Shown piece after piece: positions 19,362-50,303 of a stretch of 64,000 bases of DNA. Numbering within the stretch: the first letter of the stretch is position 1; every line of letters begins with the position of its first letter. The notes beneath the pieces are model-generated. The model saw nothing but the letters and a program-made list of their open reading frames with translations. It was not told the origin of the DNA and searched no databases. Source of the stretch: an uncultured Prevotella sp. (GTDB lineage: Bacteria > Bacteroidota > Bacteroidia > Bacteroidales > Bacteroidaceae); the NCBI GenBank assembly GCA_946186115.1, contig CAMHLV010000006.1, positions 13,950 through 77,949 of the forward strand, in the 5' to 3' direction. The position numbers were made by a program, and so were the translations under genes.

Positions 19362-22300
19362 ATGAATCAAAAAATCAGAAAGACAGCGCTGTTGATGGGT
19401 GCATGCTCCATTTTAGGAATGTACTCACCAATGACGGCCAGTGCCAAGACTTCGGTTCAGGCTGTTCAACAGTCAACCAAGAAGGTTACGGGTACCGTAT
19501 CTGACTCCCAGGGGCCAGTGATTGGTGCCAGTGTCGTTGAAAAGGGAACCACTAATGGCGTGGTAACCGATTTCGACGGAAACTTCACTCTTAATGTGAA
19601 ACCAGGTGCTACTCTGGAAGTTAGCTACATTGGTTACACTACTCAGGAGATTGCCGTTGGCAATCAGTCGAATTTTGCTGTTACCCTACAGGAAGACAAC
19701 AATTCTTTGGATGAAGTTGTCGTTGTGGGTTATGGTACTATGAAGAAAAAGTTGGTGACAGGTGCTACTGTTCAGGTTAAGGGTGAGGATATTGCCAAGT
19801 TGAACACCACCAACGCACTTGAAGCCATGCAGAGTCAGACACCAGGTGTTCAGATCACACAGAGTTCTTCTCAGCCTGGTAAGGGCTATAAGGTCTATAT
19901 CCGTGGTATCGGTACTACTGGTGATGCCCAGCCTCTTTATGTTATTGATGGTGTAGCAGGTGGAAACCTGGACGGCATCAACCCCAATGACATCGAGAGC
20001 ATCGACGTGCTGAAGGATGCTGCATCGGCAGCCATCTATGGTGCACGTGCTGCTAACGGTGTTATTCTGGTTACTACCAAGCAGGGTAAGGCTGGTAAGA
20101 TTGAACTCAGCTACAATGGTGCAATGGGTTGGTCAAACGCTTACAAGCGTCCGCAACTGCTTAATGCTCAGCAGTATATGACTATTATTGATGAGTTCTA
20201 CTTTACCACTTCTGGTGCAAAACTGGATTGGCCTGGTTTCGTTCCTCAAAACATTCTCGACAAGGTTGCTAACGGTTGGGAAGGAACTGACTGGTGGGGC
20301 GCTTTTGAAAACAAGAATGCTTTACAGAATAATCATTCATTAACCTTGACCGGAGGTACTGACATGTCTAAGTTTGCAATGTCGTATACCTATACTGGCA
20401 ATGAAGGTATTATGGGTGCTGAGCAAGCTTCTTACTACAAGCGTCATACTATTCGCATCAATAGTGACCACGTGCTTTTGAAGGCTAAGGACTTTGATGC
20501 CATCACCATCGGCGAAAATATTTCTCTTGGCTATTCTAAGAGTCACGATTTGGCTGAGGACGGCATGTATTGGAGTTACATCCACGACCTGCTTCAGACT
20601 TCACCCCTCGTTCCACAGTATGCTGACAATGGTGACATTTATAATTATAATAAGTATGGCGAGGGCTGGAACGACCAGATTTTCAAGAATCCATGGGAGA
20701 GCTTAAGCAAAGGTGGTTTCAACTCTATGGCTGAGAGTCGCAATCTGAATGTTAACGCTACTGCTTTCCTCACTGTGCAGCCTATTAAAGGTTTAAGATG
20801 GCGCACCCAGTTCAACTATGCATGGAATGCCGGAACCTATCGTAGCTATGGTGAACCTCGTTCTCCAGCAAACGGTTCTGCTATTGTTGACTCTTATAGC
20901 GGCAGCCAGAGCGCATACATGAATACTAATTGGTCTGTAGAAAACACAATTACCTACGATCTTCCTATCTTCTCTGGTCACAAAATCAGTGTAATGGCTG
21001 GTCAGAGTTTCCAGAGTTCAGCATGGGGTGAAAACATCGGCGGTTCTAACAAGGCAAAATATGGTGAACAGCTTGCAACACTGAAGGGATGGGATTCTGC
21101 ATACCTGTCAAACTTCAAACTTACAAGTGCCACTGATGCCACTCTGACTGGTGCACCAACTGATGAAAGTTATCTTGCTTCATGGTTCGGACGTGCTACC
21201 TGGGACTACAACGAAAAATATATGGCTACCGTCACTGTACGCTATGATGGTTCAAGCGTATTCAACGATGGTCACCGTTGGGGTGCCTTCCCATCAATTT
21301 CTGCAGGTTGGGTAATCAGCAACGAGAAGTTCATGGAGAAGACCAGCAGCTGGCTCGACTTCTTAAAGATCCGTGCATCATGGGGTCAGAACGGTAACTG
21401 TGCTATTCCTGCTTACCAGTATCTTGCTACTATCGGCCAGTCTGGTCAATATAACGACAATGGCTATAAGTTTGCTTCTGACATGAACACCTCAGTTGCT
21501 GGTACTCCAAAGACTGGTGCATACGCAAACATTCTGCCGAACTATGACCTTACATGGGAGACCTCTGAGCAGCTCGACTTAGGTTTTGACGCTCGATTCC
21601 TTAACAACCGTTTGGGCGTAAACTTCGACTGGTATAAGAAGACAACTAAGGACTGGTTGATTACAGGTCCTCACGTTGCCATCTATGGTACAAACCCGGC
21701 ATACATCAATGGTGGTGACGTTGAGAATACAGGTATTGAACTTGCTCTCACTTGGAACGACAGAATCGGTAAGGACTTCAGCTATAACGTAGGCGTAAAC
21801 TTTGCTACCAACAAGAACGAGGTTACTCGTATTGCTAACGACAACCACTACATCAATGGTCCTGGCGGTGTTCTCTCACAGGGTACAGAATATGTATATC
21901 GTGCTGAGGAAGGCAAGCCTATTGGTTATTTCTATGGTATGTCTTATAGTGGAATCTGGCAGAGTCAGGATCAGATTGATGAAGCACGCGCTAAGATGGA
22001 AGCTGAAATCGCAGAAGGTAAGATTCCTACCATTGTAGTTCTCAAGAATGCTCAGCCTGGTGACTGTATCTGGGATGACTATAATCATGATGGTGAGATT
22101 AACTATTCTGAAGGCGACAAATGCGACCGCCACGAGATTGGTAATCCTAATCCAGATGTTACCCTTGGTATTAACCTCGGTTGCACTTGGAAAGGCTTCG
22201 ACTTCGCTGTAAATGGTGCTGGTGCATTTGGTCAGCAGATTATGCGTTCTTACCGTTCATTCGGTGACAACCCTGTCCAGAACTACGACACCACAATCTT

Positions 22301-22646
22301 AAATCGTTGGCATGGTGAAGGAACCTCTAACGACCAGCCACGTCTGTCGGCAACAGGTCATAATAACACTATCTGGGTATCAGAGCGTTATATGGAGGAT
22401 GCTGACTACTTCAAGATTAAGACCCTGACTCTTGGCTACGACTTCAAGCATATCTGGAAGGCTTGTCCGTTCCAGCAGCTCCGTTTCTATGTTCAGGCTC
22501 AGAATCTCCATACATTCACTGGCTACACTGGTCTCGATCCTGAGGTTGGTAACTCTGGTGGTGGTACAGGCTGGGCTTCTGGCATTGACCTGGGTCTTTA
22601 CCCAACCTCTCGTACTTATTTGGTTGGTGCAAGTATTAAATTCTAA
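19362..22646 (+). CDS. susC: SusC/RagA TonB-dependent transporter
   Basis: LDEVVVVGYG, VLKDAASAAIYGARAANGVILVTT, RYDGSSVF, ends ASIKF. Confidence 0.95.
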   Translation: MNQKIRKTALLMGACSILGMYSPMTASAKTSVQAVQQSTKKVTGTVSDSQGPVIGASVVEKGTTNGVVTDFDGNFTLNVKPGATLEVSYIGYTTQEIAVGNQSNFAVTLQEDNNSLDEVVVVGYGTMKKKLVTGATVQVKGEDIAKLNTTNALEAMQSQTPGVQITQSSSQPGKGYKVYIRGIGTTGDAQPLYVIDGVAGGNLDGINPNDIESIDVLKDAASAAIYGARAANGVILVTTKQGKAGKIELSYNGAMGWSNAYKRPQLLNAQQYMTIIDEFYFTTSGAKLDWPGFVPQNILDKVANGWEGTDWWGAFENKNALQNNHSLTLTGGTDMSKFAMSYTYTGNEGIMGAEQASYYKRHTIRINSDHVLLKAKDFDAITIGENISLGYSKSHDLAEDGMYWSYIHDLLQTSPLVPQYADNGDIYNYNKYGEGWNDQIFKNPWESLSKGGFNSMAESRNLNVNATAFLTVQPIKGLRWRTQFNYAWNAGTYRSYGEPRSPANGSAIVDSYSGSQSAYMNTNWSVENTITYDLPIFSGHKISVMAGQSFQSSAWGENIGGSNKAKYGEQLATLKGWDSAYLSNFKLTSATDATLTGAPTDESYLASWFGRATWDYNEKYMATVTVRYDGSSVFNDGHRWGAFPSISAGWVISNEKFMEKTSSWLDFLKIRASWGQNGNCAIPAYQYLATIGQSGQYNDNGYKFASDMNTSVAGTPKTGAYANILPNYDLTWETSEQLDLGFDARFLNNRLGVNFDWYKKTTKDWLITGPHVAIYGTNPAYINGGDVENTGIELALTWNDRIGKDFSYNVGVNFATNKNEVTRIANDNHYINGPGGVLSQGTEYVYRAEEGKPIGYFYGMSYSGIWQSQDQIDEARAKMEAEIAEGKIPTIVVLKNAQPGDCIWDDYNHDGEINYSEGDKCDRHEIGNPNPDVTLGINLGCTWKGFDFAVNGAGAFGQQIMRSYRSFGDNPVQNYDTTILNRWHGEGTSNDQPRLSATGHNNTIWVSERYMEDADYFKIKTLTLGYDFKHIWKACPFQQLRFYVQAQNLHTFTGYTGLDPEVGNSGGGTGWASGIDLGLYPTSRTYLVGASIKF

Positions 22647-49290: not shown

Positions 49291-50303
49291 TGTTGTGCTA
49301 TACATTCCATTTCCACCAGCCATTCAGGTCGGCAAACTTTACCATGAACTATGACGTGTGGAATGTCGGGATAGTTCTGCTGCATGTAAGTCTCTACTTG
49401 TTCGTAGTCGGATGTGTCGCGTAGATATACAATGAAGTACTGTATGTCGTGCATGGTGGCACCGCCGTCTTTCAGCAGGGCGCCGATGTTCTCCAGCAGG
49501 CGCTTCGTCTGACGGCTAATGTCGCGCAGATAGATTACGTGTCCGTGGCGGTCGATGGATGCCGTTCCTGAAATGTAGAAAATGGTCTTGTCGGATAGCG
49601 ACAGCTTGGTGCCTCTTTCGAAAGCTACGCCGTACTCATGCGTGGGGTTCAGATGATCCAGTGCCTTGAGATATGTCTTGTCGCTCTCTTTGATGTTGGG
49701 GTAGGTGAGAAAGTCGATGGCTACCTGTGCCGACTGAATGTGGGAAGCTCCTCCAATGCCTGTGCTGGCAATGAAGTGCGTATCGATAGTCAGGCCGTGC
49801 TGGCTGAAGATGTCGTTACGTGCTTTTACTGCTCCAGCGTAGTTGTTGTCAATGTCGTTGACGTATATCCAGGTTCTTACACAATGAGTGTCTAATCTGA
49901 GATTATGTTCCTTCAACCATCTCACATATTTCTCGAACAGCATCATCGTCTGAAGATATGAACTGGTGCCGCGTGTCTCACCTTCGGTCAGCCTCATGCT
50001 TTGGAATATGTATGGTGCTGGTTCGGTACTTGTCTTGACGAGCAGTGCTATCTTACTACCGTCGGCAGGAGCCTGCTCTACTATGGTAGAAGCCGCTTCT
50101 GACAGGATTTCCTGATATAGTTCTGATTCTACAAACTGTGTATGCTGGTTCTGAGCATCACTGAGGAATATCTTGCACCATTGCAATTTCCTGCCCTCGC
50201 GTTCTTCGGCGTCGAGGTATTCACGCAACAGTGTTTCTAGCTCAACAAGCCTTTTGTCAAAGTGGTCCTTCGACAGCGGTTTGAGAATATTATAGTTGTC
50301 CAT
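49287..50303 (-). CDS. Long Rid/YjgF-fold protein resembling FkbO/Hyg5/XanB2 chorismatases
   Basis: RTWIYVNDID, ASTGIGG, YGVAFERGT, ISGTASID..G, VCRPEWLVEME. Confidence 0.7.
   Translation of the reverse strand: MDNYNILKPLSKDHFDKRLVELETLLREYLDAEEREGRKLQWCKIFLSDAQNQHTQFVESELYQEILSEAASTIVEQAPADGSKIALLVKTSTEPAPYIFQSMRLTEGETRGTSSYLQTMMLFEKYVRWLKEHNLRLDTHCVRTWIYVNDIDNNYAGAVKARNDIFSQHGLTIDTHFIASTGIGGASHIQSAQVAIDFLTYPNIKESDKTYLKALDHLNPTHEYGVAFERGTKLSLSDKTIFYISGTASIDRHGHVIYLRDISRQTKRLLENIGALLKDGGATMHDIQYFIVYLRDTSDYEQVETYMQQNYPDIPHVIVHGKVCRPEWLVEMECIAQQ

Follow-up and report, generated by a model that had tools for sequence, protein, structure and literature searches.

The window examined here is a stretch of 64,000 nucleotides from an uncultured Prevotella species (GenBank assembly GCA_946186115.1, contig CAMHLV010000006.1, positions 13,950 to 77,949 of the forward strand), whose genome assembly is 2.83 Mb in size and 79% complete. 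Between positions 19362 and 50303 the window encodes five copies of a two-gene module, in which a gene for a membrane protein of the family DUF6057 is followed directly by a gene for a TolB-like β-propeller lipoprotein with a conserved C-x-N-C-H motif. When the proteins of 19362-50303 were scanned against Pfam and NCBIfam, and the open reading frames (ORFs) listed, Pfam PF19529 (DUF6057) matched five genes with E values from 2.8e-66 to 2.8e-173 and bit scores of 225-578, against a gathering cut-off of 29.8 bits, and a same-strand PD40 protein of about 490-505 amino acids (aa) came directly after each of them. The spacing from the DUF6057 gene to the propeller gene in pairs a to e is 1, 45, -4, 4 and -4 nt, the two negative values being ATGA overlaps. 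These matches and gaps bear out a preliminary description of the same DNA, made from its letters alone, in which five DUF6057-like genes and TolB-like lipoprotein genes were paired tightly and in constant order. The genes and features of the region are:

19362..22646, + strand, SusC-like TonB-dependent transporter 1 (CarboxypepD_reg_2 and Plug)
22661..24583, + strand, SusD-like lipoprotein 1 (SusD_RagB and SusD-like_3)
24603..25382, + strand, 259-aa lipoprotein in the position of a surface glycan-binding protein (no Pfam or NCBIfam match)
25454..27259, + strand, DUF6057 a, 601 aa (PF19529, E 2.8e-66)
27261..28775, + strand, TolB-like CxNCH propeller lipoprotein a (PD40, alignment)
28784..30172, + strand, DUF6057 b, 462 aa, membrane part shortened (PF19529, E 1.2e-134)
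30218..31741, + strand, propeller lipoprotein b (alignment)
31781..31806, + strand, terminator-like hairpin of 10 pairs with a T run, at the end of unit 1
32185..35919, + strand, SusC-like transporter 2 with a C-terminal OmpA-family domain (Plug, CarbopepD_reg_2, OmpA)
35963..37753, + strand, SusD-like lipoprotein 2 (domain scan)
37789..39306, + strand, 505-aa lipoprotein with an internal tandem duplication (no Pfam family)
39554..41080, + strand, DUF6057 c, 508 aa, with an alternative start at 39542 (PF19529, E 7.6e-119)
41077..42555, + strand, propeller lipoprotein c, in ATGA overlap with DUF6057 c (alignment)
42581..43225, + strand, DUF4369 lipoprotein, 214 aa, true start 42581, between pairs c and d
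43194..44957, + strand, DUF6057 d, 587 aa, modelled (PF19529, E 2.8e-173; pLDDT 96.7)
44962..46431, + strand, propeller lipoprotein d, modelled (pLDDT 90.6; TolB Z 26.7)
46424..47887, - strand, propeller lipoprotein e, convergent, in 8-nt overlap with propeller d (PD40, E 8.2e-19)
47884..49323, - strand, DUF6057 e, 479 aa (PF19529, E 8.9e-129)
49287..50303, - strand, 338-aa protein, Rid/L-PSP domain at the C-terminus, often adjacent to e-type pairs

Unit 1 runs in the order SusC1, SusD1, 259-aa lipoprotein, DUF6057-a, propeller-a, DUF6057-b, propeller-b and hairpin; hairpin totals in the window were not above those of shuffled sequence, and 31781-31806 was the sole strong terminator-like site. 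Propeller a is taken to start at ATG 27261, and a TTG at 27150 is likewise open. Unit 2 consists of SusC2, SusD2, the 505-aa lipoprotein, DUF6057-c, propeller-c, the DUF4369 lipoprotein, DUF6057-d and propeller-d, and convergent to it is a run of ffh, folD, the 338-aa Rid-domain protein, DUF6057-e and propeller-e. The preliminary description had given the layout SusC-SusD-lipoprotein-pair-pair twice, with a fifth, convergent pair ending a run of ffh, folD, TPR and Rid genes. Both units are present and the fifth pair is where it was placed, but the DUF4369 lipoprotein gene intervenes between the third and fourth pairs, and the supposed TPR and Rid genes are one gene for the 338-aa protein. The same description reported no glycoside hydrolase, peptidase or regulator in these 31 kb, and the Pfam and NCBIfam scans found none of these families in any gene of 19362-50303.

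Analysis of other genomes showed that the DUF6057-propeller arrangement is general. The linkage set comprised 98 records (the window, loci of relatives and 77 loci of named genomes), in which a script counted 146 adjacent pairs, the DUF6057 gene coming first in 139 of them; the median gap was 3 nt. A DUF6057 gene lay directly upstream of 153 of the 163 propeller ORFs, the remainder being mostly at locus ends or in reversed order. Nearly all full-length DUF6057 matches in 24 genomes of the same genus directly precede a propeller match, the exceptions being one DUF6057 gene without a detected partner and one at a contig end. This adjacency is far beyond chance, because it recurs in every genome examined. 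Co-occurrence was assessed in an even draw of 150 genomes, at least 90% complete, from the same GTDB family, where DUF6057 was present in 105 and the propeller in 106, the two sets of genomes being identical save for one in which the propeller lies at a contig start.

Trees of the two families, constructed with FastTree from 139 pairs after three doubly assigned genes were removed, had patristic distances that correlated with r = 0.904, compared to a maximum of 0.114 in 200 permutations, and the DUF6057 and propeller genes of every window pair had their nearest foreign counterparts at the same loci. The expectation raised in the preliminary description, that the two families would be linked elsewhere and their gene trees congruent, was thus confirmed by profile searches with neighbourhood analysis and by the tree comparison. 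The paralogues are well diverged, the five window DUF6057 proteins sharing 20-39% identity and the five propellers 33-36%. Independent support for the pair as a unit comes from natural fusions: P0396 (1105 aa, seven member sequences, from an organism of 63% GC) joins DUF6057 to a mature propeller by a Pro/Ala-rich linker of about 50 residues that stands in place of the propeller signal peptide, and P0393 (857 aa) is a second DUF6057-propeller fusion. DUF6057 and the propeller form a real unit.

In a propeller fusion of another kind, P0395 (969 aa, 8 contigs), a metallophosphoesterase/5'-nucleotidase domain is attached C-terminally to a CxNCH propeller; the gene lies right 3' of a DUF6057 gene (L101-L103, 9001-11910), in a context other than a polysaccharide utilization locus (PUL).

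In the AlphaFold model of DUF6057-d (pLDDT 96.7, pTM 0.94) about nine helices cross the membrane, two short helices lie in the first loop, and the C-terminal domain is all helical. Hydropathy and the positive-inside rule predict a cytoplasmic N-terminus, nine transmembrane (TM) helices and a periplasmic C-terminal domain, a topology for which the strongest support is provided by natural reduced forms of the protein. In several Prevotella lineages (L053, L058, L061, L068 and L083) DUF6057 is reduced to about 300 aa, spanning TM1 to TM3 and the first half of the helical domain, and in L062 and L070 it is a lipoprotein of about 205 aa, consisting of a lipoprotein signal peptide and the helical core with no TM domain. 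All of the reduced genes lie directly upstream of a propeller gene and downstream of SusC-SusD, and their partner propellers retain every conserved motif. Conservation across an alignment of 150 DUF6057 sequences peaks in the first loop (residues 33-61) and in the core (292-460) and is poor over TM4-9; the near-invariant loop residues are E41, Q44 and D61, with E41 in 97% and D61 in 93% of the sequences. The reduced forms and the conservation map together identify the periplasmic helical-repeat core as the constant partner of the propeller, and the membrane domain can for the most part be dispensed with. In structure the repeat core is similar to tetratricopeptide repeat (TPR) domains of the peptide-binding type (Z 10-12).

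Structural matches covering the whole membrane domain were all to glycosyltransferases of the C superfamily (GT-C): Pmt1/2 (Z 10.8, 275 residues), Pmt4 (Z 10.7), yeast STT3 (Z 9.5), human STT3 (Z 8.9) and, by Foldseek, AglB (E 0.03). The matches span 260-275 residues, and their Z scores are below the level deemed safe for helical bundles in the notes of the tool. The likeness to GT-C enzymes with TPR domains (PMT, TMTC or TMEM260, STT3/AglB) extends to a polytopic domain with the N-terminus inside, a C-terminal TPR-like domain outside the membrane and, after TM1, an outside loop that has a pair of short helices and whose acidic residues are conserved, the position of E41, Q44 and D61 in DUF6057; TMTC-type enzymes likewise have a TM domain followed by a TPR domain. 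DUF6057 could on these grounds be a GT-C enzyme dependent on lipid-linked sugar, with the TPR domain binding an acceptor, that glycosylates the propeller or uses it as an adaptor. We regard this as quite improbable. With Z values of 9-11 the structural resemblance is weak, Pfam and PDB searches at E values up to 10 matched the sequence to no GT-C family (PMT, PMT_2, STT3 and others) and to no solved GT-C structure, and genes for donor synthesis are unlinked, no polyprenyl-phosphate sugar synthase gene being found in the loci. The complete membrane core is not kept in all partnered forms of DUF6057: TM4-9 are missing from the natural three-TM and TM-less proteins, which are still paired with the same propeller, its N-terminal motif unimpaired. 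In view of such short forms it seems improbable that DUF6057 is an active transferase, and we interpret its membrane part as an anchor that is GT-C-like and possibly derived from GT-C. An Atlas shape search with DUF6057 returned DUF6057 alone.

A membrane protein of about 380-405 aa that matches the C-terminal tail of DUF6057 alone occurs once per genome in most genomes of the genus, unaccompanied by a propeller. In genome G012 (L104, 4846-6063) it follows a gene resembling a branching enzyme, and an inspection of L104 yielded no functional lead.

The alignment of the five window propellers shows a lipobox cysteine, a highly conserved N-terminal segment and an invariant C-x-N-C-H in all of them. 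The model of propeller d (pLDDT 90.6) matched TolB (1c5k_A) with Z 26.7 over 322 residues, covering model residues 20-466 and thus including the N-domain, and the next fold scored 19.8; Foldseek matched the propeller to TolB with E 3.6e-14. TolB of the Tol-Pal system (PDB 1C5K, 7MX5, 2HQS), a periplasmic protein with an N-terminal domain and a six-bladed PD40 propeller, far outscores every other structural match (Z 26.7 and 25.3), and an Atlas feature search returned only clusters named PD40 or TolB. PF26549 (Tricorn_N) and PF26550 (Tricorn_2nd) were faint, generic propeller matches. The window proteins nevertheless differ from TolB in several respects: TolB is soluble and they are lipoproteins, TolB is devoid of the C-x-x-C-H that is invariant in them, and the TolB gene belongs to tolQRAB-pal, whereas these genes follow DUF6057 in SusCD loci and, unlike TolB, are found as multiple diverged copies, up to seven or more in a genome.

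These likenesses raise the idea of a tether resembling Tol-Pal, in which the propeller binds either SusC, on its periplasmic side, or a peptidoglycan-binding domain of OmpA/Pal type and DUF6057 acts like TolA or CpoB, so that the inner membrane, wall and outer-membrane transporter are joined or TonB coupling is gated. The entire two-domain architecture of the propeller is TolB-like, the TPR domain of DUF6057 parallels CpoB, which is the TPR partner in the Tol-Pal system, and the window SusC2 ends in an OmpA-family domain. Against this, the SusC2 orthologues that precede the same pair types (L013, L016, L017) are 1087-1093 aa long and lack the OmpA domain, TolB has no counterpart of CxxCH, and the propellers score at most 32.4 bits with the TolB equivalog model TIGR02800, where the cut-off is 343. 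Neither do their genes have the linkage to tolQ-tolR-tolA-pal, since the neighbours found were DUF6057, SusC/SusD, lipoproteins and Rid and no tolQRA-like genes lie nearby. Of the explanations considered, this tether appears to us the least probable.

Localization of the propeller was predicted from its N-terminus. Few acidic residues follow the lipidated cysteine, so that no Bacteroidota surface-export signal is evident, and a tether with a median of 14 residues connects this cysteine to the first conserved motif. BtuG, the accessory of the B12 transporter BtuB in Bacteroides (PDB 8PTD), was a distant Foldseek match (E 3.5e-8, rank 50), and is also a propeller lipoprotein encoded with a TonB-dependent transporter, with a ligand of tetrapyrrole type. 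BtuG is surface-exposed and caps its transporter from outside, whereas the window propeller lacks a surface-export signal and is partnered with the periplasmic domain of an inner-membrane protein.

When pairs were grouped by propeller distance into paralogue clades, every clade was found to retain its own neighbourhood across species. The a-type pairs follow SusC1-SusD1 and the 259-aa lipoprotein, b-type pairs follow a-type, c-type pairs follow the 505-aa lipoprotein, and e-type pairs follow the Rid-domain protein; a DUF4369 lipoprotein is encoded directly upstream of 23 of 44 d-type pairs and may be a third component of that type. Window unit 2 is reproduced gene for gene on a metagenomic contig. 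Other clades end xylan loci composed of SusC, SusD, a BT_3987-like protein, GH10 and carbohydrate-binding module proteins, and near these pairs are genes for a SASA esterase, GH95 and a hybrid two-component system (HTCS) regulator; the 1322- and 1330-aa proteins that adjoin some pairs are ordinary hybrid two-component regulators. The source genome itself has a sixth DUF6057-propeller pair, on another contig, inside a GH10 xylan locus (G000:C9). Outside the family, Dysgonomonas capnocytophagoides (L093) has the order SusC-SusD-lipoprotein-DUF6057-propeller. Of the features expected of a PUL, SusC/SusD adjacency is present in the window, and linked carbohydrate-active enzymes (CAZymes) and a regulator, absent within 19362-50303, are found around homologous pairs in relatives.

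The link of the module to SusCD loci is conserved, and the absence of CAZymes is local to these two loci, not a property of the module. The term CAZyme-free in the preliminary description is right for these two SusCD loci and needs correction for the module, as the same pair families end GH10/GH95/esterase/HTCS xylan PULs in relatives; some pairs, the e-type here among them, are not beside any SusCD. Its view of the pairs as cognate inner-membrane and periplasmic partners that diversified as units is upheld by the linkage, the tree correlation (r = 0.90), the fusions, the predicted topology, the lipoprotein forms and the separate contexts that the clades keep across species and even in Dysgonomonas. 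Its interpretation is thus supported in part, the handling, sensing or modifying of what the two transporters import being a possible role of the pairs. About 70% of genomes in the family carry the module, in up to seven or more diverged copies, and a profile search recovered 4783 clusters at 50% identity; among other Bacteroidota it was detected in 4 of 400 genomes.

The sixth pair of the source genome (G000:C9, 36505-39176; L020, 8476-11144) ends a SusC-SusD-BT_3987-like-GH10 xylan locus. The genome search marked TGA codons inside its matches, and both ORFs are nonetheless open in the ORF call.

The C-x-x-C-H motif was present in all 163 propeller ORFs, as C-x-N-C-H in 160 and with serine or cysteine at the third position in the other three (CMSCH, CMCCH). 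This is the CXXCH signature of c-type cytochromes, and it occurs together with the export and maturation functions that such proteins need: the propellers have lipoprotein signal peptides, and the source genome encodes ResB and CcsA (G000:C100). In the family sample, 18 of 150 genomes had no CcsA match, and the pair was found in one of these 18 (G077) compared to 105 of the 132 with CcsA. Viewed from the other side, CcsA was present in 104 of 106 propeller-positive genomes, and a 105th (G050) has the ResB piece of CcsBA at a contig cut. Three genomes of the genus sample were CcsA-negative, all of them without the pair, and in the genera that are mixed for the pair every CcsA-negative genome lacks it, an outcome with a chance of about 7e-4 by a hand calculation within genus in which kin are not independent. 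Judging from the motif, haem on the propeller is plausible; we consider a covalent c-type haem to be about as probable as not, with a metal site as the alternative.

Two candidate maturation factors for the motif were rejected. DUF6057 as a dedicated CcsA-like haem lyase has no invariant histidine, and CcsBA was absent among the structural matches listed for it. The DUF4369 protein, as a TlpA/ResA-like thiol reductase for CxxCH, has neither a thioredoxin domain nor a CxxC.

Taking these findings together, we lean slightly toward the reading that DUF6057 and the propeller make up a periplasmic complex, tethered to the membrane, which is a locus-specific accessory to its own SusCD importer. DUF6057 would be an inner-membrane protein with a cytoplasmic N-terminus and, in the long forms, about nine helices, its conserved parts, the first loop and the TPR-like repeat domain of peptide-binding type, facing the periplasm. 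The other half of the complex would be the propeller, a lipoprotein on a tether of about 14 residues with the TolB-like build of N-terminal domain and six-bladed propeller, whose Cys-x-x-Cys-His most likely bears a cofactor, with roughly equal chances that this is a c-type haem or, failing that, a metal. The repeat domain may grip the propeller, probably through the very conserved N-terminal segment of the latter. The complex would then serve the SusC/SusD importer of its putatively co-transcribed locus, a context in which we count the terminator-like hairpin solely after the last gene of unit 1, either by receiving or processing substrate or by docking on the periplasmic face of the transporter. 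Its action might be substrate hand-off, a haem- or metal-dependent reaction, or docking to SusC or to a peptidoglycan-binding domain. On this model the five or six pairs would be deployed as one (or two) per uptake locus and would not be parts of a single multi-subunit machine. The variety of anchors, which may be polytopic, three helices, a lipid or mutual fusion, suggests that closeness to the membrane and to the partner outweighs any activity of the membrane domain.

Several observations weigh against this periplasmic accessory and its proposed cofactor. Shared genealogy is expected of linked genes anyway, so what the congruent trees demonstrate is that the pair was duplicated and diverged together, rather than that the proteins touch. 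The e-type pair follows ffh, folD and the Rid-domain gene, and similar lone or housekeeping contexts were found in L006, L008, L018 and L019, so the SusCD link is not obligatory. Confined as it is to one GTDB family and a few outliers, the module cannot be something that SusCD transport needs in general. With respect to haem, kinship and a high base rate (131 of 150 genomes) confound the association with CcsA, in the model C-x-N-C-H falls within one β-strand (residues 173-180, pLDDT about 88-94) of a hairpin, so that the two cysteines would face opposite sides, and no cytochrome was among the structural or sequence matches listed for the propeller.

The same motif could also be read as belonging primarily to a redox module. 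The propeller would be a c-type cytochrome lipoprotein with one haem, which CcsBA matures and DUF6057 positions at the membrane; the pair would perform periplasmic electron transfer or a haem-dependent reaction of sensor or peroxidase-like kind and be only loosely tied to the uptake genes. Such a role is consistent with the universal C-x-x-C-H, in which substitutions are confined to the non-ligand third position, with a periplasm-facing lipoprotein lacking an acidic surface-export signal, and with the presence of ResB and CcsA in the genome, G077 alone having the pair without CcsA and the mixed genera giving the value of about 7e-4 above. Against it stand the modelled β-strand and the lack of a cytochrome-like pocket or fold among the matches listed. 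DUF6057 has no invariant histidine or cysteine and no known quinone or haem-b site, and TM-less forms exist, so an electron path from the membrane is not conserved; in the propeller there is no invariant methionine or second invariant histidine, although H401 is conserved in at least 90% of sequences. We think this redox module unlikely. Slightly better, though still doubtful, are the prospects of a more specific conjecture, that the propeller is a single-haem c-type cytochrome of a new kind built on a TolB scaffold, lipid-anchored and held by a pseudo-enzyme derived from GT-C.

A literature search found no paper that mentions DUF6057 or describes the DUF6057-propeller pair, and the system is undescribed in the searchable literature, as the preliminary description had supposed. 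All five window membrane proteins are clear members of Pfam DUF6057, an entry that gives no function, partner or topology, and no description of the family that we found mentions the obligate propeller, shortened or fused forms, or a PUL context. New here are the shortened variants, lipoproteins among them, that delimit the constant core and place it in the periplasm; the fusions of the two proteins; a numerical measure of tree congruence; a GT-C-like but dispensable membrane domain; and the finding that genomes lacking genes for cytochrome c maturation almost never have the pair. In the rumen and in many human guts the dominant bacteria are Prevotella, Segatella and Xylanibacter, whose use of fibre is explained by the PUL paradigm of SusC/SusD, surface binders, enzymes and a regulator. 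The module is very common and is wired into xylan and other uptake loci, and if it is a periplasmic accessory of SusCD it would add a missing layer to this model. Should it carry haem, haem supply would be linked to fibre use in haem-auxotrophic anaerobes, and if the propeller is a new cytochrome, Prevotella of gut and rumen, which are strict anaerobes, would employ in glycan uptake a periplasmic step, redox or sensing in nature and dependent on haem, that is matched individually to each SusCD locus. We know of no current PUL model that contains a haem-dependent periplasmic component. The lipoprotein-only, three-helix and fused variants indicate which parts are essential and would be useful constructs.

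Other features of the region concern the neighbours of the pairs. The 259-aa lipoprotein keeps its place after SusD1 orthologues in L010, L014 and L030. The nearest solved SusD structures gave no hint of substrate. The OmpA-family peptidoglycan-binding domain of SusC2 (residues 1144-1233, window 35431-35919, E 2.7e-13) is a Pal-like domain beside TolB-like proteins. The 338-aa Rid-domain protein (49287-50303) had a weak match to FkbO/Hyg5 chorismatase, at 40 bits with a cut-off of 325, and adjoins e-type pairs in related genomes in either orientation; its homologues lie next to pairs in L001, L003, L005, L031, L032, L037, L041 and L052. No Pfam, NCBIfam or PDB relative was found for the 505-aa lipoprotein, in which a tandem duplication of about 550 nt (window 38223-39298) comprises two repeat pairs that are 79-85% identical. 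Lastly, 300-nt stretches at the 5' ends of propeller genes c and d (window 41153-41452 and 45035-45334) are 82% identical, well above the remainder of these paralogues, a pattern that suggests gene conversion, and a single matching tree discordance was seen, that of DUF6057-b against L030.

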